A stretch of DNA of 64,000 bases, taken from NCBI GenBank assembly GCA_024137785.1, contig JAHRHZ010000217.1, forward strand, positions 4,907,013-4,971,012, given 5' to 3'. The stretch is from Ginglymostoma cirratum (taxonomy: Eukaryota). Of the stretch, positions 3,493-62,185 are shown piece after piece; within the stretch, counting starts at the first letter, position 1, and each line of letters starts with the position of its first letter. Below the pieces are notes generated by a model. That model was not told where the DNA came from and made no database searches. It was given only the letters and a program-made list of their open reading frames with translations. A program made the translations under genes and the position numbers.

Positions 3493-4242
3493 AAATACAA
3501 ATCTGTTTGTTTAAATAAATGATTATCAATTGGGAAATTTCAAATTTTTGAAAGGGCTTTTTATGAATAGGAGTATGTTTTATGGTGAACAGTTTAACGG
3601 ATACGTAGAACATTATTTTGTTTTGTTTCAACATCACCACTGAGATCTTTTCCTGATGAATACTCTATGAATCGCATGGAGAGTTTACAAGGTCATGGTA
3701 TGTGTGGCAGACTTTCAACATTGAAATGGCATAGGAATTATAATGAGCCATGGAAGTAAGTGGGGATGTATGGGTTGACATGGAGGATATGAAGGGCCAT
3801 TTGGGTGGGTAGGCATGAGTTGGCATGGAATCTAGTGGGAGTTATGATGAGTTGGTGCAGGGCATAAGCTAACAAAGAGGATGAGGGAACATAAGTTCCC
3901 ATGAGGGTGGGGAAGTGGGCACTTGGTGATAGAGTATGAGATGTGAAGGTTGGAACACCAAATATCTAACAAAATACCTGGATGAGATCCCAGGAAACTG
4001 AGATAGGCCTTTTAACCACTGCTTCAGCACACAGCAACACTTTCACCCGTTTTGAATCTGCATCCTGGAGAAACAGGCCTGATACAATCCCTCACTGATC
4101 CCTCCCACCCCTCCATGACTTCCCCATACACAACCTCCAAAAAATGTCTAATAACAAACCTTTTCCCAAGGTGAGTGCAGTGAGTTGGAAAATTTCCAGC
4201 AGTAAAGATTTGGCCCATTTTCCATTTCCAATACAAACATCA

Positions 4243-4605
4243 GCCAGAGGCTGCAGAAAGCCTCATCCATGCCTTTGTTATCATCATATTAACTACTAGA
4301 ATGGATCCCATCTTCCATTCCTCATAGATTTGATCTCATCCAAAACTCTGCTGCTTAGCAAGGCACATTCACCCATCTCTTTTGTGCTTGCTCAACTAGG
4401 TATACTCCATTTCCACTATTCCAAATTTAGAATTAGTAAAGTTGTGTTCAAATCTTTCCATTTTCTCAACCTTCCTTGTACCTATTTTCTTTTCCACCAT
4501 ACAACCCTCCGAAAAGATACACTTCTCTAGTTTTATTCTCCTGTGCATCCTTTCTTCACCTCAAAACTAGCCTTCAGCTCTTAAAACCCTGAAATCATGA
4601 ATTCC
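4243..4605 (+). mobile_element. L2 LINE ORF2 C-terminal relic
   Basis: Decayed AESLIHAFV..., LIQNSAA..., SPISFVLAQL motifs typical of L2 ORF2 C-terminus. Confidence 0.65.
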
Positions 4606-4979
4606 TGCTTTTGTTGAAAGCAAATCACAGAAAAAAATGTGTATTCACTAGCATGATATATTATTGCTGGCTGTAAACAAGTTTGAAACCTTTCTCGTTG
4701 ACCTGCACGTCAACACTCTGACCAAAGTAACACTGAGGACTGTCTGAATCATTGGGCCTTTGGCAAAATTGCAATGGTTTATTTTGCTGCTGCCATTTGA
4801 TAAACTACTTGCTCAGCTAAACAATGGCTTCTTTGATCAGTGTTAATGCCTGGAAGATTGTGTTATGTCAGTTCTGACCTTAGTGACAGGATGATATGAC
4901 ACTGATGCAGAATATTATGTTTGTCAGCAGCACAGTGACTGTGGATGTCTGGATGAGAGCAACATCCCATCTGCCTTCA

Positions 4980-5160
4980 CAGTTGATGTAATCAATCCTA
5001 TTGCACTATTTTGAAGAAAAGCAGAGTGTTCTTCTGGTGTCCTGGTTAACATCAGTCCTCTAATCAACATCACTCAAGCAGATATTCTAAATTGTTAGTT
5101 AAGGGAGCTTGTGTGCAAATTAGCTGTTGTGTTTCCAACATTGCAGCAGTGACTACAAGA
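4980..5160 (+). mobile_element. Deu-domain SINE (AmnSINE1/SacSINE-like) core relic
   Basis: GCACTATTTTGAAGAAAAGCAG..GGTGTCCTGG..CAACATCACT..GGGAGCTTGTGTGCAAATT..CAGTGACTACA resembles the Deu core as I recall it. Confidence 0.65.
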
Positions 5161-6983
5161 CTTATTTTTTGAAATGGACCACTGTTTTGTTGTAAAACAC
5201 AGCTACCATAAGCATTCTTCAGCGTTCAACTAAAGGTTGGGTCAGTATCTCTTGTGTGCAAATGGCAATAGTTGGGAGCATGTATTTCCTGTAACATCTG
5301 GCTAGACTGGTATCAACCCTTCTGGTCCTCCAACACAAAGGGACAGAGAACTTCCATGACCTCTTTGGAAATAAGAGAGGGGCAACTAGCATCCATCCAG
5401 AAATGAATATTTATTTCTCCTCAGCTATCTGCAGTAAAAACACAACAAGTATCAAAGTAAATTGAGAAATAAGATTCCTGTTGGCTCCTTGTAAAATACC
5501 TGCTGACTACTGAGCTTTTAAAATCTACTTTGAGCTTTTAAGAGTTGCCTAGCAATACTAAACCATCAATCTTTTTTTTAATGTAGTACCATCTGATCTC
5601 TGTACTGTTGCTTCTAACGTGGTGTGATTGGCAAACAATGTGGATCAGGCAGTAAACTGCAAATAGGACATGTGACAGTACCATTATAATTGCTTTTAAG
5701 TACACAATTGTGTTTTTGAAATGAGCATTTTCACAAACTCTAGAAAATGGTCTGAAAAATTCAATGTTAAAAGGAGTAGGAATCTGATATAATAGATTGT
5801 TGACACAACACTTGCTTACACTGAATCAAATGGTTTCAAAAAATGAAGCAACGTTTACAGGAAAATGTAGCCTCAATGTTCTAATTGTGGTCGACAACAG
5901 AATTAATAAGACAGTAATGACTATTCTCTTGGCTCTAATCTCATGAGTAAAGGTATGAAGGAGATGAAGGTTTTGAATAGATACCTACAACCCTTGTAAA
6001 GCTCTGTCAATAGAACTTAAAAGTATGTTCAGAGAGCAAGGTATACATTTATCTGTTAACTGTCATTGCAAAGAAAGTGACGCTTCATTATTTAATGAAA
6101 GTACATAAATCCCAGTTCAATATATTGAGTAAAATTACTCATTATTGCAGGCAAGTGAAATCTGATGTTTTATAAACAACATCTGCCATACAACACAAGG
6201 GAAGAACGAAAGCTGAAGTCAATTTGATCATTCATCTTATGATTGCAATGTGCTTACTTTAATAAAATCTCAGGATAAAATTAAAATTAGATACAAAAGG
6301 ATAGAAACTGAGTATTCTAAGAGTTGTGCAAAACATTGTGTTCACTCCATATAAAATAGTGGGGTCAGCACAAGGGGAATAATTGGTTGGTGACTATGAT
6401 GGGGTGAAATGACCAAATGAATCATTCAACACCCAGGTCCACTTTAACCATCAAGGAGTTTATTGTTTTATACCAGCCCAGAGATGTCTCCACTGAAAAG
6501 GGAAACATGCAGTTTAAATTCAATTACTCAGCTCTTTATGGCTGGCTCTCATATACCTACTCATCCAATAACCTGGGGATCTTCAAATCATATGAATGCA
6601 ATGTCAGTGCATGGTCAGGCCCTTCCCTTCTATCCTATGATGAATCCCAGACTTTGGACCAGCCTGGTACAGAGGCTTCCATCAGCATTTCTCAGGGCTG
6701 TACCTTATCTGGCCGTCTGTACACAAGCAGCTACATCTGTTTCTGTTCTGCATTTCACAAGAACATTTGTACAATACCTTAACCTAGTTACCGAGGATAT
6801 AGTCCTTCTATGAGGACAGCTAATTACTCTAGCTCATAGGTTTACTTCAAACAGCAGACCATGGGAGCTGCAGCTTCAGTTAAAGATCCATCTCAGCCAT
6901 TTTGTCAACTGATAACCCCTTTCAGCCATTTCATACAGCATCAGCCATAGGCAGCCCCAATAAGTAACTGTAGAGTCTTCATT

Positions 6984-7157
6984 ATTTTTTCTTCATTCAG
7001 AGGATGTGGAGGTCATTGACTGGGTCAGCATTTGTTACCCATCCTTAATTGCCCTTGAGAAAATAATGGTGAGTTGCTTTCTTGAACCACCGCAGTGTAT
7101 ACACACCTACACTGCTGTTGGACAGGGAGTTCCATGACTTTGAACCAATGATAGTGA
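6984..7157 (-). mobile_element. LINE (CR1/L2-group) 3' terminal fragment
   Basis: Reverse complement of the GGGCAATTAAGGATGGG.AA.AAATG tail seen on plus at 59580-59752. Confidence 0.7.
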
Positions 7158-7638
7158 CTTATTTGACCCTTTGTTTCATTTTTGTTCATTAAGCTAAGAA
7201 TCCAACAAATAGAGATGGGCCAGAAACCAAGAAATTGTGCGTCCATGGTTTGCTTTTTATAGCAATTCATGTCCTGCACGACCAAATGTGCAGGAAGTGT
7301 CTTGAGTTATAATCGCTTGAGGTCTGAGTTTTGTAGGTTGAACAGAAGTTGGCATCACTGTAGCTCAACCAGGAATGTTTTGTGTATAATATATTTCTGG
7401 GTGTTGTCACCCTGCAAATTGACTATATGTAGGTAGAGGAATTGAGCAATTGACAGTCAGTCAAAAAATGCCAGGCAGGCTTTGCATCTGAGCACAATAA
7501 AAGGTCAGGAATAAGAACCCCTTGCAACACTGGGTGTTCTGACCTATAAGGAAGCTTATTCCCTTCACGCACGCATTACTTGTATTATGTCTATGACCTC
7601 TTGAGAACTGCATCTTTGATTATCCAGTCTCATCTCAC

Positions 7639-7841
7639 CTCTGGAGCTTCAAGTCAGTGCAGAGCAGGCTGTTGTCATTGTTAATTCTCACCCTGCTGCT
7701 CTTCTTGACCTCACTGGTCACCTTCATCCCCATCTGAGGTCCAGAGTAAGACATCATGTTGATCTGATAGTTCACAGTTCCAGAGTAGAGGGCAACGTTA
7801 CAAACATCTAAATTTGCCAAAATCATCTCCAGTGAATGTAT
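7639..7841 (-). CDS. Candidate internal coding exon of an unidentified host gene (IHSLEMILANLDVCNV...LCTDLKLQR)
   Basis: Polypyrimidine tract ctgctttctttccctttgtttaaaaAG, 203-nt open frame with GC-rich third positions, donor AG|GTGAG; no repeat motif seen; no protein recognised. Confidence 0.3.
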
Positions 7842-8722
7842 CTTTTTAAACAAAGGGAAAGAAAGCAGCTGAGAGGTTTCAATGTTTATTGGGATGCTTT
7901 TCTTTTGTTGGTGTCCCCATGTGTCTGCTGCTTTCATGTCTCTTTAACTGCTGCTTTATTTCTACCATGTTGTCACTGGTGAGTTCCACTCAGAAGTCTA
8001 TGCATGGTGAAATTGCAATAGCGATATTAATACGTCTGCAATTTAGAGAAATTATCAATGTTTCTCTCCGGTTCACACATGGCCTAACATGATTCAGTTC
8101 AATGCGGAAGGCAAAGAGTTGGACCCAGCTTCTTAACACATTATTAATCCCTCCCTTTTCAAGCCAGAGATGATGCCAAACTCACCAATGCCTTCAACCT
8201 AAAATGCAACCTTTGTTTAAACATCCTGTCACAGACATTGAACAATCCAGGGTAAGTATATGTACTTACAGTAACATATTTCAAAGTCCAATTGATAGGT
8301 AGTTGTTCAGGATGTTAAGAAGTTCGTGTCATTTGTCTCATGTATCTCTAGAAAGTACAGTGTGGGTTTATTTTTGATGAAGTCACAGAAATGGAAGTGG
8401 GAGATATTTATAGTTTAGATATTCTCTAAAATTGGCACAGAGTCACAAAGTAGCCATGCTACCCATTCATAGTTAGCAAAAGGAGGTCAAAAAAAAACAT
8501 TGTTGGATTCAACATGTTGAATGTGGTGGCAGTTAAGCTGTGGGTACCAGATGGGTTCACCACATTGACTTTTAATGGAGGGAAATTGACTGGCTATCAT
8601 ACTGACCAAGCTAGAACGGTGGCTAGAGCCAATCCCAGATGGAATTGAAAGCAGACTATTTGTATTTCTACAGACTCATCTTCTTTCTCCTTAAAGATGC
8701 TGTAAAGACAAAATAAAACACC

Positions 8723-9780
8723 AGGGCTGGAATGTTGAAAGGGCCTCAACAACATGGTCTATGGTGAGGTTTATGGCAGGAAGCTGCATGAAGGCTACCA
8801 AAGCCTATTTTGCATTGGGAACAGCCCACTGCATCTTTTTTTGTCTGTGCCAAGTGGTGAGGCAAGCTTCTTGCTAGGCAGTGGCAAGATGCCAATTAAG
8901 GAGGATGATATCTTATTAAAAACTTGTTAAGGACACAAAGTAGCTCATTAACTTTCAATTTTCTATCTTACCAAACACACTTAAACAAGCTAAACATCTG
9001 AGCGTCAAAGTCGGTACTTGTCAACTTCAGCTTACCATTTGCTGAGAACAGCCCCTATGTTGATCAGCACCAGAGAGCATCTCAGAGCAGAATCCATTGA
9101 CACTAGCTGCACATAACCCTTACACATGGAGATTGTGTTCAAACATTTGCCGACCACTCAAGACCATCGTGGCACCTCTCTGATCCAATTTCAGGCCACT
9201 TAGAAAGCACAGATTTGCATTGCAGTGCACATTAGTATTTAGCATTGAAAATCTACTGCAAGGACACTTCATACACAGTGACAGGCACCCGGCTCATCAC
9301 AGGATCTGGCCACATCCCAGGGCTGCTCTCTTACTCTCGTAGCACTCACTCACTTACTGCCTACGTGAATGCTCACAGAACACACGCCTTGCAATACTGT
9401 AGCTTGCCAGTTAGAAAGTTGGTGCTTCAGAAAGGGTTGAAAGCTATCAGGACTGCTATATTGTCATGTTCTTTTGTGCAGACACAGAGTCAGGCTGCTT
9501 CTCTTCCTGGTCAGTAAGGATCTATCTGGAGAGAAGAAATGGTGAGGGAAGGAGAATTCTTGCTGTATGGAACACTAAGATGTCAACTTCACATCTACTG
9601 CATGTTCCAACTGCCTTTGACTCTCCTACAGGGTCAGTACAAGTCGGGGAAACTGTATTATTAACCAGGGAGCTGCAAACACAGCAGTCAGGGGTCTGAT
9701 CAGTTATGTCTAGAAGATGTTGGCAGAGTGTGAGAGATAATGGGGGATATTTGGGCTCTGGGAGAACCACAGGCCACATT
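8723..9780 (+). mobile_element. Possible decayed Harbinger-type DNA transposon fragment
   Basis: Starts GGGCTGGAAT (TIR-like); layout loosely parallels the Myb/SANT relic at 58030-58650. Weak. Confidence 0.25.
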
Positions 9781-17387: not shown

Positions 17388-19006
17388 GTTGAATAAGCCT
17401 TTGCATCAGTTTTCACAGTAGAAGATACCAGCTACACACCAGAACTTCAGCAGAGTCAGGGGACAGAGGCGATTGTAGTGACTATCACTAAGGAGAAAGT
17501 TTTGAGAAAGCTTAAAAGTCGAAAAGTGAATAAATCACCTGGACAAAATGGAGTGCAATTCAGGGTTCTGAAGGAGATGGATGAGAAGGTTATGGAGGCA
17601 TTGGTATTGATCCTTCAGCAATTGTTGGAGTCAGGGAGAATTCCAGAGGACTGAAAAATGGCTATTATAAACACACTTGTTGAAGAAGGGAGGGAGGGAA
17701 AAGACAGGAAACTATAAGCTGGCTCGCTTGATCTCAGTCATTAGTAAGATTTTCGTGTCCATTATTAAGGATGAGTACAAGGAAATGCATGGTAAAATAG
17801 GGCTGAATCAGCACGGCTTTGTCTTGGAGAGGTCATGCCTAACAAATCTGTTAGAATTTTTTTGAGCAGTTAATAAACAAGTTAAATGAGAACCAGAAGG
17901 CTATGACATGGTGCTGCTCTGAGACTGCTAAATAAATAAGAGCCCATGTGTTAAGGGCAAGGTACTGACATGAAAATAGGATTGGCTGACTGGCAGAAAG
18001 CAGAAAAGGGGATAAAGGGGTCTTTTTCGGGATAACAGTCAGTGACCAGTGGAGTTCTGCAGGGTCCATGTTGGAATAACAACTATTCACTTTATACACT
18101 AATGAACTGGATGAAGATACTGGGCATTGTGTCTAAAGCCACAGATGACACAAATATAGCTGGAGGAACAGGTTGTTTTAAGGGAATGGCGAGATGGCAG
18201 AAGAACTTAGACAGGCTAGGAGAGTGGGCAAAGAAGTGGCAGATGCAATACAATGTCAGAAAATGTGAGGTTATGCACTTTGGTAGGAAGAATAGAAGTA
18301 TAGACTATTTTCTAAACAGGAAAAGGCTTCAGAAATCTGAAGCACAAAGGACTTAAGATTCTTTAGTTGAACCTGCATGTTACTCTTAAGAAGGCAAATG
18401 TAATATCAGTATTCACTTCAAGAGCGCTAGAATAGAACAGCAGAGGTATACTGCTGAGGCTATACAAGGCTGTAGTCAGATGGCATTTAGAATATTGTGA
18501 GCAGTTTTGTGAAGTGTATCTAAGGAAGGATGTACTATCCTCTGGAGAGGGTCCAGAGGAGGTAGACAAGATTCTGGGGATGAAGAGCTTGTCATATGAG
18601 GAACAGTTAAGGACTCGAGGTCTGATTTGATGGAGTTTGAATGGATGATCGGGAATCTGATTGAAACTTAGAGAATGTTAAGGCCTGGATAGAATGGATG
18701 TGGAGAACATGCCTCCATTGGTTGGAGAGACTAGGACCCAAGCAGGATGAAGGTACAACCCTTTAGAACTGAAATGAAAAGGAATTTCTTCAGCGAGAGG
18801 GTGATGAATTTGTGGAACCCGTTGCCACAGAAGGCAGTGAAGACCAAGTCATTCTGTATATTTAAGACAGAAAGGATTTCTTGATTGGTATAGTGGTCAA
18901 GGGTCACAGGGAGAAAGCAGGGGTTGAAATGCATCAGCCATGATCAAATGGCAGAACATACTCTAGGCTGAATGGCCTAATTCTGCTCCCATGCCTTATG
19001 GTCTTA
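17388..19006 (+). mobile_element. 5'-truncated CR1 LINE nested in the older CR1
   Basis: Repeats the FASVFT/KSPG region already present upstream; NQHGFV, SCLTNLLEFF, WAKKWQMQYNVRKCEVMHFG; tail GAATGGCCTAATTCTGCTCC..TTATGGTCTT. Confidence 0.85.
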
Positions 19007-19084: not shown

Positions 19085-19619
19085 GGAGATAAAAGGTACT
19101 GCAGATGCTGGAGAATCCGAGATAACAAGCATGGGGCTGGATGAACACAGCAGGTCAAGCAGCATCATANNNNNNNNNNNNNNNNNNNNNNNNNNNNNNN
19201 NNNNNNNNNNNNNNNNNNNNNNNNNNNNNNNNNNNNNNNNNNNNNNNNNNNNNNNNNNNNNNNNNNNNNNNNNNNNNNNNNNNNNNNNNNNNNNNNNNNN
19301 NNNNNNNNNNNNNNNNNNNNNNNNNNNNNNNNNNNNNNNNNNNNNNNNNNNNNNNNNNNNNNNNNNNNNNNNNNNNNNNNNNNNNNNNNNNNNNNNNNNN
19401 NNNNNNNNNNNNNNNNNNNNNNNNNNNNNNNNNNNNNNNNNNNNNNNNNNNNNNNNNNNNNNNNNNNNNNNNNNNNNNNNNNNNNNNNNNNNNNNNNNNN
19501 NNNNNNNNNNNNNNNNNNNNNNNNNNNNNNNNNNNNNNNNNNNNNNNNNNNNNNNNNNNNNNNNNNNNNTATGATGCTGCTTGACCTGCTGTGTTCATCC
19601 AGCCCCATGCTTGTTATCT
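19085..19619. mobile_element. Young fold-back PLE insertion with centre hidden by a gap
   Basis: Identical 50-nt inverted arms 19120-19169 and 19570-19619; 33-nt tail 19086-19118; perfect TSD ATGGCTTTTGTGAA at 19071-19084 and 19620-19633. Confidence 0.9.
19170..19569. other. Assembly gap (400 N)
   Basis: Run of N. Confidence 1.
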
Positions 19620-20370: not shown

Positions 20371-21038
20371 TATTGAGTTAGATGAAGGTGACAAAGGATA
20401 GGTTTAAAGTAAGTTGTGAAGAGGACACTGAAGCAAGAAAAGGTTGCAGACAAAATGAGAGGGTAAAAAATATGAAAATTTCTACTCTGGAAGAAAGAAA
20501 ATAAAACAAGTAATTATAATAACAGTTCATCCACTTCACCAACACCTTCCACCCCAACCTGAAGTTCACCTGGACCATCTCTAACACCTCTCTCTCCTTC
20601 CTGGACCTCTCTGTCTCCATCTCGGGAAACCACCTAGAAACCGATATCCATTTCAAAGCCCACTGACTCCCACAGCTACCCAGAATACATCTCCTCCCAC
20701 CCACCTTCCTGCAAATGTGCCATCCCCTATTCCCAATTCCTTTGCCTCTGCCGCATCTGCTCCCAGGATGAGGCATTCCACTCCCGTACATCTCAGATGT
20801 CCTCATTCTTCAAGGACCGCAACCTCTCCCCATCAATGGTCGAGAACGCCCTCGACCGTGTCTCCCGCATTTCCCGCAACTCATCTCTCACACCCCGTCC
20901 CCACAATAACAACCAAAAAAAATCCCCCTTGTCCTCACGTACCACCCCACCAACCTCCAGATCCAACGCATCATCCTCTGACACTTCCGCCATCTGCAAT
21001 CCGACCCCACCACCAAAGACACTTTTCCCTCCCCACCC

Positions 21039-21587
21039 TTGTCTGCTTTCCAGAGGGACCACTCTCTCCGTGACTCCCTTGTCTGCTCCACACTCCCCTC
21101 CAGCCCCACCACACCCGGCACTTTTCCCTGCAACCGCAGGAAGTGCTACACCTGCCCCCACACCTCATCCCTCACCCCAATCCCAGGCCCCAAGAAGACT
21201 TTCCACATCAAGCAGATGTTCACCTGCACATCTGCCAATGTGGTATACTGCATCCGCTGTACCCATTGTGGCTTCCTCTACATCGGGGAAGCCAAGCGGA
21301 GGCTTGGGGACCGCTTTGCAGAACACCTGCGCTCAGTTCGCAACAAACAACTGCATCTCCCAGTCGCGAACCATTTCAACTCCCCCTCCCACTCCTCAGA
21401 CGACATGTCCATCCTGGGCCTCCTGCAATGCCACAATGAGGCCACCCGAAGGCTACAGGAACAGCAAATCATATTCAGCCTGGGAACCCTGCAGCCCAAT
21501 GGCATCAATGTGGACTTCACAAGCTTCAAAATCTCCCCTCCCCCAACCGCATCCCAAAACCAGCCCAGCTCATCTCCACCTCCCTAA
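21039..21587 (+). pseudogene. PLE GIY-YIG endonuclease domain (C-terminal part of disrupted ORF)
   Basis: Cys-rich linker CNRRKCYTC followed by VVY/YIG motifs, catalytic-type R and E, and PNGIN motif. Confidence 0.9.
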
Positions 21588-21855
21588 CCTGTTTTTCCTC
21601 TCACCTATCCCCTCCTCCCACCTCAAGCCCCACCCCCATCTTCTACCTACTAACATCATCCCGCCCCCTTGACCTGTCCATCCTCCCTGGACTGACCTAT
21701 CTCCTCCCTACCCCCCCACCTACACTCACTTTTACTGGGTCCAGCCCGCCTCTTTGACTTGTCTGTCTCCTCTGCACCTATCCTCTCCTCTATCCATCCT
21801 CTATCCGCCTCCCCCTGTCTCCCTATTTATTTCAGAACCCTCTTCCCCTCCCCCA

Positions 21856-21889
21856 TTTCTGATGAAGGGTCTAGGCCCGAAACGTCAAG
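21856..21889 (+). ncRNA. Minimal type I hammerhead ribozyme motif (PLE-associated)
   Basis: ttt-CTGATGA-A-GGGT-ctag-GCCC-GAAAC-GTC-aag: intact core, 4-bp stem II, palindromic ACGT stem III, predicted cleavage after GUC (21886). Confidence 0.75.
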
Positions 21890-23009
21890 CTTTCCTGCTC
21901 CTATGATGCTGCTTGACCTGCTGTGTTCATCCAGCTCCACACCTTGTTATCTCGGATTCTCCAGCATCTGCAGTACCTTTTATCTCTGATGTAATTATAA
22001 TGTTAAGTATTTGCAGAACTTTAAGATGCAGAGGGATCCATGTGTTTTAGTGTATGACTTGAAGTCTGGAATGCAGATGCAGCAAATAATTAGGAAAGCC
22101 ATTAGAAAGATATCATTTGCTGCTCATATTTGCTAGAGTTTAGAAGTGTAAGAAGCAGCTTGGTTGAAACACAAGATCAAGGTGCCTTGACAGGACGCAG
22201 GATGAAGAGATGTTTCTTGTTGGGGGGAGGAATATAAGAACTAGAGGTCACCCATTTAAGACTCCACTTTCCAGTTAAAGGAAATACGGTTTCAGAATGC
22301 TAAAAGGTATGTGCTTTCACATTTTCCAGAGTAGCAGGGTTTTTATTTATGCAGAATGTGTTCATGTGCTTGGGTTGCCTACCAGAGTAACCATACTGCT
22401 AGCAGACCACATCACCACTGGCTGCCTTTTTAATTTGTTATTGCAGCTGATTGTTGCAAAATGAAGTCATCATGACTGTCTGGCAAGACATCAGACATTG
22501 ACCTGCAATGATTCTCCACTGGTGGTCCCATACGAGCTATATATTGAAGGTGTGGAATTCCTTTTGGTTCCAATATGTTGTGGAGCGAGCGTGTGGTGCC
22601 TACAAATCTTGCCGTCGACAGCACTCTACACCCTGGAGATGGCTGCAATTATACCAATGTAATGTATTCATTCTATTTGCTTCCCTCTGGCAAGAGAGAA
22701 TTAAATGTGGTTAGCTCTTTTAAAGTAGAGAGCTGTAGTGGCCTGCCTTACACAACCGTGGAGAGCAAGCTGGAAATGCTGTGACTATCTCTGACTTCAG
22801 CCTAAAAGCAGCCACAAAAATAACCATGGTGATCATCATCACTTTCATAACCACTGACAATGTAACCCTCACTCTGCTCTGAGTTAGTTGTTGTGCCTTC
22901 AGCAGGTGTAGGAAGGCCATCCTGAAGCATAGCATTCCTTCTGAGGTTCAAGTGAGTAAACTTCCTGTGGAAGTCAGATTGTGCGAAAAATAACAGATTC
23001 CCAACCCTG

Positions 23010-23590
23010 AAAACATTTCAAGTCCGAATCACTCTTCGTGCTCAAAGAAGAGTCGCATTGGACTCCGAGGAAGGTTTGAATTATAAAGTAAGGCTGGGTT
23101 TTTTTCACTGGAGCGTAGGAGGCGCAAGGTGACCTTTATAGAGGTTTATAAAATCTTGAAGGGTATAGACAGGGTTAATGGTACATGCCTTTTCCCTAGG
23201 ATAGGCAATTTCAAGATGAGGGGCATATTTAAGGTGAGGAGAAAGATTTTTTAAAAATGAGGGCCAAATTGTTTTTCCACATGCATACTACCCTCTGTGT
23301 AATGAACATATGGAGGAAGTGGTGGATGTGGGCACAGTTACAACATTTAAAAGAGATTTGGAAAAGTATATGAATAGGAAATATTTGGAGGGATATGGGC
23401 CAGGAGCAAGCAGGTGAAGCTAGTTTAGTTTGTAATTTTGTTCGGCATGGACTGAATAGACCAAAGGGTTTGTTTCCGTGCTGTATGACTCTATGACTTT
23501 AACTTGACAGATACAGCTAGACCTGCTGAGGTGTTCTACTACTGTTTTTATTTCAGATTTCCAGCACCTCTAGTATTTGGCTGCTATAAA
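23010..23590. mobile_element. Older fold-back PLE relic interrupted by a CR1
   Basis: Opposed hammerhead remnants at 23011-23066 (GAAGAGTC..GACTC); resumes TTAACT..AGACCTGCTGAG..TTCAGATTTCCAGCA after 23498. Confidence 0.55.
23067..23498 (+). mobile_element. CR1 3' fragment
   Basis: LGFFSLERRR..IEVYKILKGIDRV; tail CCGTGCTGTATGACTCTATGACT. Confidence 0.9.
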
Positions 23591-41557: not shown

Positions 41558-41800
41558 GAGATGCTGAATGCCTAAACAGTAAAAAAAAGGTACTGGAAAA
41601 GCTCAGCAGGTCTGGCAGCATCTGTGGAGAGAGATGATAGTTAACATTTTGGCTCAAGTGACCTTTCCTCAGAACCTCACTCGACCTGAAACATTAACTA
41701 TGGTTTCTCCCCAGTGATGCTGCCAGACCTGCTGAGTTTTTCCAGCTATGTCTGTTCTCGTTTCTGATTTACAGCATTTACAGCTATGTTGGTTTTTATT
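41558..41800. mobile_element. Fold-back PLE mini-element centred on hammerhead remnants
   Basis: Left arm CTGGAAAAGCTCAGCAGGTCTGGCAGCATC..TTCCTCAGAAC; right arm GACCTGAAACATTAACT..GATGCTGCCAGACCTGCTGAG plus tail. Confidence 0.8.
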
Positions 41801-43140: not shown

Positions 43141-43436
43141 AAATGCACAAACTCAAAGAACACCCAAAGAACACCATTAAAACAGAGCGGAAAAAAATGG
43201 GCAAAAGCATTTTTCTATTCATATTGATCAAAATATCAATCAAATTGAAGAAGAATGTTAAATCATTTAGTGCTCACTATCAGAATCGGATTTCACTATC
43301 AAAGGATGTCGAACAATACTGCATCCGCTGTACCCGTTGTGGCTTCCTCTACATCGGGGAAACCAAGCGGAGGCTTGGGGACCGCTTTGCAGAACACCTG
43401 CGCTCAGTTCGCAACAAACAACTGCACCTCCCAGTC

Positions 43437-43836
43437 NNNNNNNNNNNNNNNNNNNNNNNNNNNNNNNNNNNNNNNNNNNNNNNNNNNNNNNNNNNNNNNN
43501 NNNNNNNNNNNNNNNNNNNNNNNNNNNNNNNNNNNNNNNNNNNNNNNNNNNNNNNNNNNNNNNNNNNNNNNNNNNNNNNNNNNNNNNNNNNNNNNNNNNN
43601 NNNNNNNNNNNNNNNNNNNNNNNNNNNNNNNNNNNNNNNNNNNNNNNNNNNNNNNNNNNNNNNNNNNNNNNNNNNNNNNNNNNNNNNNNNNNNNNNNNNN
43701 NNNNNNNNNNNNNNNNNNNNNNNNNNNNNNNNNNNNNNNNNNNNNNNNNNNNNNNNNNNNNNNNNNNNNNNNNNNNNNNNNNNNNNNNNNNNNNNNNNNN
43801 NNNNNNNNNNNNNNNNNNNNNNNNNNNNNNNNNNNN
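43437..43836. other. Assembly gap (400 N)
   Basis: Run of N. Confidence 1.
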
Positions 43837-44071
43837 CCCAAGCCACACCCCCATCTCCTATCTACTAACATCATCCCACCCCCTTGACCTGTCCGTCCTC
43901 CCTGGACTGACCTATCTCCTCCCTACCCCCCTACCTACACTCACCTTTACTGGCTCCATCCCTGCCTCTTCGACTTGTCTGCCTCCTCTCCACCTATCCT
44001 CTCCTCTATCCATCCTCTATCCGCCTCCCCCTCTCTCCCTATTTATTTCAGAACCCTCTTCCCCTCCCCCA

Positions 44072-44105
44072 TTTCTGATGAAGGGTTTAGGCCCGAAACG
44101 TCAAG
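44072..44105 (+). ncRNA. Minimal type I hammerhead ribozyme motif (PLE-associated)
   Basis: ttt-CTGATGA-A-GGGT-ttag-GCCC-GAAAC-GTC-aag; differs from the 21856 copy only in loop II. Confidence 0.75.
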
Positions 44106-46869
44106 TTTTCCTGCTCCTATGATGCTGCTTGACCTGCTGTGTTCATCCAGCCCCATGCTTGTTATCTCGAACAATATGTAACTGTGTTAATGATATATTT
44201 TTACTTCTGAATGTCCTGATAAGCCTCTTGACTGTTATGGATTTTACAAAGTCCAGGAATCAAGCTGTTGAGTAGACAATTGCAATCAACAAAGTGCTTG
44301 ACATCGGCTGACACCTGTCAATGTTAGCTGAAAGTCCTTGTATTACCATGAGGTAATGTAAGTATATAAACTGGGGAGAAAATGCAATCTGCTACAATAG
44401 AAGTCCTAAAATTATTATCCCATCTCAGATAAGCCTCCATGCAGAGAAGCAACTTCATCCCTCACTTGGGTTAGTTGGTAAGTGGGTGGGGGCAATTAAT
44501 CTAGGGGCAGGGTGGTAGGTGGAGATGCCACCACCTCCTCACTTCAAACCTAATGTTAGTCTGAGAACGGGTTGGCATTGTACTTCCAAGTGAGGCCCTT
44601 TAGGGGGCAGTTAACTTCCTGCTAATAGTATTAACCCGGAGGTGGTCAACACAGGATGTGCAACAAGCAAACCTCATGTACAGTTGCTTACAGACTTCTT
44701 GGGAGTGTGAGGAGGTGCCTCATTTAAACACAATCAAACAGTTTGGATCTGACCTAGGAAAAGGGTCCTGTTGTCAGCCAGGCCCTGATCTTGCTGCAGA
44801 ACTCACTTGCTCATGACTCCTAGACCATGTTCCCCTCCTGAGTTGCAACAGTGCTGAACTTTCTATACAGTTACTTCTTTGAACTCCTGCATCTCTTGGA
44901 TCTGCCTTCCACATTGAAACCATATTTCAATGTTCTTCCTAACTTCAGTTAGTGCTCGTTTCCTTTCTAACTTAAAATATTCTACTTTCCTCACTAATTC
45001 ATCATTTTATGTAAATCTATTCACCTCAATGTTCTTTCCATTGCCCCAAAATTTACGCAATCATGCTGCAACCAAAAAAAAAGTTCTAGGAGACAATGTC
45101 AGGACAATTCCACACTGGTCCCAGTATGAGTCCCCAGAAATAAAATTAATCATAAGATACTCATAAATAATTCATAAATGCTTGAGAGCGGGCTCCAACA
45201 ATTCTTCCATCTCCATGAATAGCATGATAAGCCCTCCCAAGGGGAACTGATATCCTGGATTCTGGATGCATCTCTGTCCTCTGGATGACATGATCCCAAT
45301 TCTAGTCAGATTGTTTCCATTTTCAGAGGGTTAATTAGAATATCAACACAAACAAATAAAAAAGAAGTCATGCTCACCAAATTTCATGATCCATGTAAAA
45401 GATTGCAAATCCAAGAGCCACAGTGTGATCAGAATCTAATGTGCGTATCCTTCTTCACATGATCAACAATAGCTTTGATGTGAATGTCTCATTTTTTGGG
45501 ACAGTTTTAAACTAACACATCCTTGCAGAAATTATTGAAGTTGGTTGCACTGCTATTCTCATTTGAAGTAAAATAATATCGAGCAGGATACAAAACCAGC
45601 ATTATGCCGAATCCCATCAGTTTCCTGAGGGGAGAGTTAGGTGAAAACTAGCCTCTTCGTCTGATTAAGTAATGAAAATGAGGAGTCATAAAGACTGGTG
45701 GTGTTAAGGGTGGAGGGTCATAAGGGAAAGAGATACTGACACTAAGGGATGATGGAAAGAGATAATCATGTTCCCAGCTGAGGGGAGAACAGAGCGATAA
45801 AGAATGAAACTGCTGCAGAGAATGAGAGTAAGAAAATCTGTGAATAACTGTCGAAGAAAACCATAAAATAAACCTTTTTGTAGTTTAATTTTGGAATTAA
45901 AAATTTCTTCTATTCTAAAAATGTGTTCCTTATGATGTTTACGGAGAAACAAATTGATTATGATGAAAGACTGACCAAACAGTGTCCTAAAGCAATCTCA
46001 TATCGGCATTTTACTGCAGCATAAAGTTTTGTTCCAAATTTCAAAGGTTATTGCCATAATAACTCTTACCTTTATCATCGTGAAGTGCACCTGTGTTCAT
46101 GTTTATTGTTTCTGAAAAGAGCTTTTCAGTGACTCGTTTACATTGTATCCACAGGATCCGATGTTGCCTCATAAGTACACTGTCTATGCTGGGATTTGGC
46201 GTAACTACAATCGACATAGTATGAGTTAGGTAAAGTTTTGAAAATATTTCAGGCAGGCCATTATGTAATCAAAAGTCAATCATCATATCAATCAGGAATT
46301 TGATTTTCCAGTTATTTGAGCACTATCCTTATTCAAAGGTGAATTGCAATCATTCCCACCTTGCGCTAAAATATCATTTAAGTACATGTAAATATGGGTT
46401 GGGAGGGCATATGTGAGTAAGTACAAAGAGGTGCATCAAGTTGTTTGAATAACTGAGAAATGTTATTGGTTGTGCGCAAGAAAAAAATTCAAATAACATG
46501 AAGTCAGCTTTAGAGCATTTATTTGTCAAACCGTATATTTACACAAGAGAATTTTTCGATCTAAATAATGATGGCCACATGAGAACCCGTAATTCAACAT
46601 ATTTGTGTCAATGGACAGTTAAATGTTGCTGTCTGAGCTTCTACAAAAGAAGCTATAAAGGAATATTAAAAAAAAACAAAATTTCCTCTGCAGTCTTGAG
46701 AGTATCTGCATCAAGTGAATTTGAGCACCCAATTGTGCTACTATTGGGCCTGGGTTCATGTAACTTATTTATCCACTTAACAATTGCTATACATGATAAG
46801 TAATTTATTTGGTGAAAGCACAATATAAATGAAATCATTATAAATTTGTACTGTTGACATTGATACCTG

Positions 46870-54569: not shown

Positions 54570-54794
54570 TGAGATAGTAGGAATTGCCAATGCTGGAGAA
54601 TCTGAGATAACAAGGTGTACAGCTGGATGAACGCAGCAGGCCAGGCAGCATCAGAGGAGCAGGAAAGCTGACGTTTCGTGTCTGGACCCTTTTTCAGAAA
54701 ATGAAGAAGGGTCCCGACCTGAAACATTAGCTTTCCTGCTCCTCTGATGCTGCCTGGCCTGCTGTATTCATCCAGCTCTACACCTTGTTATCTC
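54570..54794. mobile_element. Complete fold-back PLE mini-element (93-bp inverted arms, 5-nt spacer, 33-nt one-sided tail)
   Basis: Arms 54604-54696 and 54702-54794; TSD CCAAGCAGACTG at 54558-54569 and 54799-54810; hammerhead cores meet at the centre. Confidence 0.9.
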
Positions 54795-58789: not shown

Positions 58790-59355
58790 AGAAGGAGGGT
58801 TGGCACTGGGGGAAGGTAGATGAGATGGTGATAGATGGAAGTAGGTAGGGGTTAGTGGGGATTTGTCAGTGGGAAGGGTGGGGCAGATAGGTGGGGGAAA
58901 ATATGAACATGTTGTGTCAGGTCAAGGAGACGGAGATGAGAAGGAGGGTTGGACATGGGATAAGATATGGAGTGGGGAGATTCTAAAACTGGTGAATTCT
59001 ATGTTCAGACCATCAGCTGTAGGCTCCCAAGGTGGAATATGAGGTGTTGATCCTCCATTGTGGCACTGGACGAGGGCCAGGATGGACATGTCATTGAGGG
59101 AGTGAGAGGGGGAGTTAAAATGGTTAGCGACCAGAAGGTATTGTTGATTATGTCATCTCACCTACCTTCCCCCAGCCTCACCTCCACCTCCCTCTATTTA
59201 TTTCCCAGCTCCCTTTCCCCTCCCCAGTTTTGATGAAGGGTCCCCACCCAAAATGTTGACTTCCTGCTCCTCTGATGCTGCCTGACCTGTTGTGTTCCTC
59301 CAGCTCCACACTATGTGGACCCTGACTCCAGCATCTGCAGTTCTTGCTATCTCTA
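58790..59355. mobile_element. Older PLE with inverted 5' segment (minus ~58790-59150, plus ~59150-59355)
   Basis: Minus VANHFNSPSHSLNDMSIL; plus 3' end with decayed hammerhead TTGATGAAGGGT..ACCCAAAATGTT and tail. Confidence 0.8.
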
Positions 59356-62124: not shown

Positions 62125-62185
62125 GGAAACACAGTGTGGAGCTGGAGGAACGCAGCAGGATAGGCAGTATCAGAAGACCAGGAAA
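62125..62185 (-). mobile_element. PLE 3' end fragment
   Basis: GTGTGGAGCTGGAGGAACGCAGCAGG..AGGCAG.ATCAGA is the reverse complement of 59270-59312-like sequence. Confidence 0.65.

Follow-up and report, generated by a model that had tools for sequence, protein, structure and literature searches.

A selected minimal hammerhead ribozyme at the likely mRNA front of a high-copy Penelope-like element family in Ginglymostoma cirratum

These results suggest that a minimal hammerhead ribozyme, kept by selection, lies at the 5′ end of the mRNA of a Penelope-like element (PLE) of Ginglymostoma cirratum, that it would cut slowly and only with the help of a partner ribozyme or of the PLE protein, and that most of the element's RNAs are copied uncut. 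We give this reading a probability of about 0.65. The kind of hammerhead is known; what is new is a high-copy member of it, together with where its copies end. The features are collected in Table 1, in the coordinates of the 64,000-nucleotide stretch of contig JAHRHZ010000217.1 that was analyzed (the window).

Table 1. Features of the hammerhead, of its host element and of related copies in the window
Feature	Position	Strand	Basis or remark
Two inverted same-family arms flanking a 400-N gap	19086-19619	.	any ribozyme would fall in the gap
Left target-site duplication, 11 bp, AT-rich	20510-20520	+	identical letters at 21991-22001
5′-truncated Penelope-like element, 1,470 bases	20521-21990	+	~93-94% similar to other copies
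C-x4-CxxC linker, Neptune-type zinc finger	21129-21155	+	translation; definition in the available part of PMC8557442
GIY-YIG endonuclease domain	21240-21473	+	Pfam PF01541, 25.4 bits vs cut-off 22.6
ORF stop	21585-87	+	
Pyrimidine-rich stretch after the ORF, 3′ UTR; likely also the promoter side of the pseudo-LTR	21588-21853	+	promoter side inferred
Predominant 5′ limit among short copies; likely start of transcription	21854-21856	+	genome-wide counts and local starts of copies
Minimal type I hammerhead	21856-21889	+	sequence, descriptor scan, subfamily comparison
Stem I, 5′ strand TTT and 3′ strand AAG	21856-58 and 21887-89	+	
Hammerhead core CTGATGA	21859-65	+	
Extra unpaired A	21866	+	
Stem II	21867-78	+	GGGT 21867-70 / GCCC 21875-78, loop CTAG
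GAAA	21879-82	+	
Palindrome ACGT, in place of stem III	21882-85	+	
Position C17	21886	+	
Predicted cut after GUC	21886/21887	+	also a minor 5′ boundary among genomic copies
Leader after the ribozyme	21890-21953	+	first common 3′ end at ~21953
Optional PLE "tail"	21954-21990	+	second common 3′ end 21986-90; tail as in the available parts of PMC11167929 and PMC8557442
Right target-site duplication	21991-22001	+	
Second intact ribozyme, same PLE family, loop II variant	44072-44105	+	22.2 kb downstream, same strand
Older fold-back pair of short copies meeting at the ribozyme 5′ edge	54571-54794	.	

The motif at 21856-21889 carries the core pattern CUGANGA ... GAAA ... UH, with the unpaired base between positions 9 and 10.1, the G10.1-C11.1 pair and stem II all present. 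There is no loop III, and the palindromic 15.1-16.1 stretch is ACGT. Stem I has 3 bp (two U-A and one U·G), the next pair being A/C. The core, the extra A, the ACGT palindrome and the 3-bp stem I were thus found as a sequence-only reading of this DNA had described them, and its assignment to the minimal type I hammerheads of PLEs agrees with the definition of Cervera and De la Peña (2014; PMC4209133, cited here, like PMC8557442, PMC11167929 and the preprint below, for the part available to us). In that definition the motifs are type I, without loop III, with a palindromic 15.2-16.2 stretch, an unpaired base between 9 and 10.1 and a G10.1-C11.1 pair; the extra A noted in the sequence-only reading is standard there. 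An Rfam scan of 20500-23500 returned zero hammerhead matches at E<=10, family thresholds not being reached. A descriptor consisting of the hammerhead core plus a 4-bp stem II was run on the window together with 80 stretches of 10 kb taken at even spacing (381,669 of the 800,000 bases of these stretches were masked, leaving 418 kb in all); it gave 37 matches, against 0, 0, 1, 0 and 0 in five local shuffles. A loose hammerhead pattern occurred in the window at chance level (7 observed, 7.75 expected). Sequence comparison confirms a real minimal type I hammerhead of PLE pseudo-LTRs, which by itself is ordinary within its class.

The host copy is dead, since it is without the reverse transcriptase core and its frame is broken, and it is an inert passenger. 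Longer copies continue upstream into reverse transcriptase motifs (in one of them, L202, the stretch matches Pfam RVT_1 with E 2e-5 and 24.9 bits, under the 29.6 cut-off), so that one ORF holds the reverse transcriptase and then a C-terminal GIY-YIG domain, as in EN+ PLEs; an optional 30-40-bp tail and inverted 5′-truncated partner copies are further EN+ traits. A CX2-5CxxC linker lies ahead of the endonuclease. According to Craig et al. (2021; PMC8557442), Neptune elements have a linker of this kind and Penelope/Poseidon elements lack it, and by its linker sequence the family would be of the Neptune type; like Neptune EN+ PLEs there, it combines the C-terminal GIY-YIG domain and linker with inverted truncated partners, a tail and a hammerhead. 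A complete element flanked by two pseudo-LTRs was sought in the long copies and in 14 targeted stretches, and none turned up.

The exact 28-base core occurs 22,605 times in the genome (4.36 Gb, 289 contigs), evenly split between the strands, and its reversed control not once. An 18-mer anchor (21898-915) has an exact genome-wide count of 114,978, which makes a family of >100,000 copies, and ~65,000 of these retain the first 8 core letters. This copy number is above the 4,000-9,000 given for coelacanth and Xenopus in PMC4209133, where, as here, there are many families and the motifs are mostly single and dispersed. Among the first 100 exact copies listed, 13 close pairs (within 5 kb) were noted by eye, 12 of them on opposite strands.

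Across PLE subfamilies, the comparison on which the sequence-only reading was to stand or fall, the core proved far more conserved than its flanks. Four subfamilies were chosen by a downstream motif (277, 34, 14 and 33 segments, 40 of the 277 being aligned). Their majority letters were identical at 11/11 core and 5/5 further structural positions, two CpGs included, and agreed elsewhere at 2/6 free positions and 19/41 downstream flank positions. For 16/16 versus 19/41 the Fisher p is 7e-5, with positions and subfamilies that are non-independent and some flank positions that were also used for sorting the families. The ACGT palindrome was retained in 4/4 majorities; stem II covaried (GGGT/GCCC, GGGT/ACCC, GAGTC/GACTC), and so did stem I (TTT/AAG, AGTT/AACT); hammerhead position 7, loop II and position 17 were variable. 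In a young subfamily, for which 94 copies were picked on their flanks, identity was 98.3% in the core, 97.5% in the flanks and 90.4% at CpG sites, and 51 copies had strictly intact ribozymes, the other 43 failing mostly by CpG decay. Because dead copies decay neutrally, the contrast of core and flank inside this subfamily is uninformative, and the cross-subfamily comparison was used instead. This comparison points clearly to selection on the hammerhead core in the source lineages of the element. A separate stretch of 20 bases 3′ of the ribozyme (21905-21924), which served as anchor, is common to subfamilies that differ elsewhere, and some of its bases could pair with 21962-68 in the tail; the stretch may serve as a promoter element or form a structure where copying begins.

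To locate 3′ ends, 88 copies anchored solely upstream of the ribozyme were used, one more having been dropped at a gap. As many as 83 ended in two clusters, 50 at 21936-60 and 33 at 21981-92, and none ended at 21845-92, which rules out the cut (0/88 at 21881-92) as a 3′ end of copies. The ends lie 67-100 bases past the cut; therefore the copied RNAs were uncut at that ribozyme.

The 5′ ends gave a different picture of the motif from that of the sequence-only reading, in which it was a 3′ feature: in longer copies the ORF start comes ~170 bases downstream of the ribozyme. When 8 letters were required in addition to the 21898-915 anchor, the count was 64,734 at 21859-66, 36,138 at 21847-54 and 36,215 at 21831-38. 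Thus ~44% of the ribozyme-bearing copies start just before the core, with no loss over the next 16 bases. Local alignments placed 29 of 72 starts at 21850-62 (20 of 92 arms were dropped at gaps or edges); with copies restricted to those of 88% similarity or more, the figure was 19 of 55. At five loci (L238, L244, L206, L207 and L020) the tail is followed by the same leader and the ORF start codon (~36 more bases precede the start codon in longer copies), so that the leader preceding the ORF start repeats at the 3′ end, the location of a pseudo-LTR; the leader also continues past the tail in an inverted arm (L241), and L201 starts just before the start codon. From the starts at the 5′ edge and the position of the ORF start we infer that the mRNA likely begins with the ribozyme, of which a second copy lies at the 3′ end, and that transcription likely starts at 21854-56, as far as DNA can tell. 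The letters at this site fit an initiator consensus. Before 21855, the 100 copies listed had C in 51 cases, G in 24, A in 21 (17 of them fold-backs) and T in 4, as judged by eye, so that G made up 24 of 49 non-C letters there and 29 of 51 before 21854. When 30 of these loci were inspected, five were target-bounded without an extra G, and several of those with G turned out to be junctions of inverted arms. A cap-derived G at the start is hence suggestive only.

The step at 21854-56 might instead mark where the reverse transcriptase stops at a C-rich tract, or where the RNA is spliced or otherwise processed. A long C-rich tract does begin just upstream, an intron of Drosophila virilis Penelope extends up to the 5′ edge of helix I (PMC4209133), and the cap G is no more than suggestive. 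The step is sharp, however, and the next 16 bases of the tract lose no copies; AG is absent before 21854-56, and G is enriched before the start among the copies listed. We consider this explanation improbable.

To count starts exactly at the cut, copies were required to mismatch at three letters and to match exactly from the chosen position onward. There were 602 at 21887, compared with 116 at 21884 and 218 at 21890, the two control positions. Whole ribozymes with small indels, which are artefacts of this count, accounted for 9 of the 48 different loci inspected at 21887 (from 50, with 2 merged for identical junctions), 0/20 at 21890 and 3/20 at 21884. After correction, and with flank composition assumed in two ways, starts at 21887 were 1.8-3.6 times as frequent as at its neighbours, or about 1,300-1,650 copies (~1%). 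A target duplication stops exactly before 21887 at four loci (L238, L242, L248 and L337), and exactly at the control positions at none of the 20 + 20 loci. One of the four, L238, starts at the cut, runs through the leader and the start codon, jumps to a 3′ pseudo-LTR and ends in a target duplication of 14 bp. Running into the leader was seen at 2 of 39 cut-start loci and 2 of 20 loci at 21890, and so is not cut-specific. In a pooled local histogram of 242 arms, whose bars at 21854-55 are inflated by 30 loci selected for that start, 9 starts fell at 21885-92 and 4, 5, 3 and 6 in the neighbouring 8-base bins, with zero exactly at 21887. The excess at the cut site, measured against only two control positions, could be inflated by A-rich microhomology; we take it as a modest hint of cleavage in vivo. 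The earlier claim that the RNA processes itself after GUC at 21886 thus agrees with the small excess of starts at 21887 and conflicts with the 3′ ends. At two further loci (L322 and L336) a copy's tail end is fused directly to a cut-site start, and these junctions look as if the enzyme had jumped from a cut 5′ end to the start of copying.

It is conceivable, with the odds somewhat against it, that the genome preserves, like a fossil archive, the whole RNA life of the element, in which transcripts start on the ribozyme and the roughly 1,300-1,650 insertions, L238 included, come from ribozyme-cut RNAs. If true, this would be in vivo evidence of cleavage by a vertebrate PLE minimal hammerhead, and would point to the hammerhead as a switch by which the mRNA loses its cap along with its first 32 bases.

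Conservation would also be expected if the motif were kept as a structural or promoter element (for protein binding, as a downstream promoter or for translation control), with catalysis incidental or absent and the excess at 21887 due to microhomology. Counted from the proposed transcription start, the motif would occupy +2 to +35, the zone of core promoter elements in TATA-less genes (PMC2377424). Furthermore, ribozyme mutants of an anole element insert unchanged in vitro and that study detected no RNA ends at the cut (PMC11167929), and Naiad elements thrive without canonical hammerheads (PMC8557442). Against such a role, the variation obeys catalytic rules, with position 7, loop II and position 17 free to vary and the stems covarying, and the four target-bounded starts exactly at the cut have no counterpart at the controls. 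This account seems unlikely to us.

In the 34-base monomer the core is predicted to pair with its own cut site, stem II forms (probability 0.9-1.0) and stem I, the 3-bp stem that covaries among families, fails (probability <0.01). The core/cut-site helix has a probability of 0.84-0.99 in predicted folds of 34-51 bases, and stem II is weaker in longer sequence context. The monomer is not predicted to be active; therefore a dimer or a protein would be needed. The proposal of the sequence-only reading that these ribozymes work as dimers fits the predicted misfold, with a protein as an alternative helper. The closest intact same-strand partner seen lies 22.2 kb away, and the gap at 19170-19569 could conceal another. 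Stem II with loop II (21867-21878) is nearly a 12-base palindrome, through which two copies are predicted to pair. This lowest-energy predicted duplex was rejected as the active form; loop II is unconserved, and the duplex looks incompatible with a second junction via stem III.

The observed sequence, copy number, conservation pattern, copy ends and ORF-start position lead us to propose the following steps. Transcription would begin at ~21854-56 within the pseudo-LTR, and reverse transcription inside the RNA, at ~21953 or 21988, as for the anole element in vitro. Copying begun in the first leader would yield 100-135-base copies starting at the ribozyme 5′ edge, and copying begun in a downstream read-through leader would yield long 5′-truncated copies such as 20521-21990. 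A minority of the RNAs, on the order of 1%, would be cut after GUC, and copying of their 3′ products would give the starts at 21887. Cleavage would shorten tandem read-through RNA or take off its cap, and would not create the end where copying starts.

The sequence-only reading went further, in that the ribozyme would routinely process the element's RNA at 21886 and its dispersed copies would cut host pre-mRNAs. The intact and selected core, the excess of starts at the cut, the ~65,000 copies with the first 8 core letters and the presence of the motif in poly(A) RNA, on both strands, would favour this. Routine processing is opposed by the 0/88 ends at the cut, by the predicted monomer helix between core and cut site, and by results in vitro, where a single minimal motif is uncleaved and dimers are cleaved little (PMC4209133). 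As for host pre-mRNA, 12 of the 13 close neighbours listed are antisense and would pair with the ribozyme, and 43 of 94 copies are not strictly intact. We judge the whole proposal very doubtful, and cleavage of host pre-mRNA by most copies unlikely. The 150 longest of 385 unmasked frames (>=45 aa) of the window gave no Pfam match above a curated cut-off, and no host exon was seen. Host-RNA cutting would matter more if true; there is no support for that idea in these data.

The RNA-seq data are neutral on cleavage and show passenger transcription of the family. One poly(A) run placed 51,615 reads on 21400-22100, about equally on the two strands, and 87% of them continued into unlike sequence. 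No pile-up of read ends was seen in this run, a fragmented library that is poor at showing ends and whose species may differ from that of the window. Several of the best-supported fold-back read joints link 21852-56 with 21888-92, but reflect genomic junctions at a small number of loci that are transcribed. Only 396 reads came from a second run, and almost all of these belonged to a single divergent relative.

The role of the hammerhead in endonuclease-bearing PLEs is still an open question (PMC8557442). Minimal hammerheads have been described in fish Xena, Poseidon and Neptune elements, and in PLE pseudo-LTRs the lone motif was uncut and dimers were weakly cut (PMC4209133). The stems reported for Schistosoma motifs are longer (stem II 7-8 bp and stem I 4-5 bp, versus 4-5 and 3-4 bp here). 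The available part of that paper names no sharks and, unlike the present analysis, maps no copy ends; its supplements, or Lünse, Weinberg and Breaker (2017), may list shark motifs. A close parallel is the Poseidon element of Anolis carolinensis (Frangieh et al. 2024; PMC11167929), whose ribozyme cuts only with the element protein. There, ribozyme mutants insert normally, uncut RNA is the main template, and reverse transcription begins at two internal sites of the RNA, which bound the tail. Both elements have a pseudo-LTR ribozyme that precedes the sites where reverse transcription starts, two 3′ ends ~35 bases apart, an AT-rich target and uncut RNA as main template. They differ in that the anole ORF begins at stem II, in contrast to ~170 bases after the ribozyme here, in clade, the linker here being of the Neptune type, and in that a small excess of DNA copies starts at the cut here, whereas the anole study found no RNA ends at the cut.

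Non-LTR retrozymes, reported in one chondrichthyan, also have a type I hammerhead related to those of PLE pseudo-LTRs (bioRxiv 10.64898/2026.07.22.740005), and this identity was rejected because it needs non-coding tandem units each with a ribozyme, whereas a single ribozyme with an ORF remnant is found here and close pairs are mostly inverted. In the passages and listings consulted on hammerheads and Penelope there was no description of copy starts at the ribozyme 5′ edge or at the cut, which does not prove that there is none. What the present analysis adds is the copy ends, with the ribozyme at the likely mRNA front and a hint of rare cutting. A family of >100,000 copies thereby yields predictions at the level of single bases: a capped start at 21854-56, a 5′-OH at 21887, and copying starts at ~21953 and ~21988.

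Other observations concern the relatives of the element and its surroundings. Older or short copies of the family are also found at 58918-59354, 54571-54794, 1183-1244, 62128-62185 and 41715-41747. The N-terminal part of the PLE protein contains a long Thr/Ala/Pro-rich stretch (L202:4756-5700, and L157) with no match in Pfam. Both 400-N assembly gaps of the window fall inside copies of the family (19086-19619 and 43316-44169), as do gaps at several fetched loci, and therefore fold-back copies are probably under-assembled. Decayed frames at 17397-19005 seem to resemble the reverse transcriptase of a CR1/L2-type LINE. An unrelated family of minimal hammerheads, with a 7-bp stem II, T as the extra base and another stem I, was also seen (L132:1065, L076, L132, minus strand).
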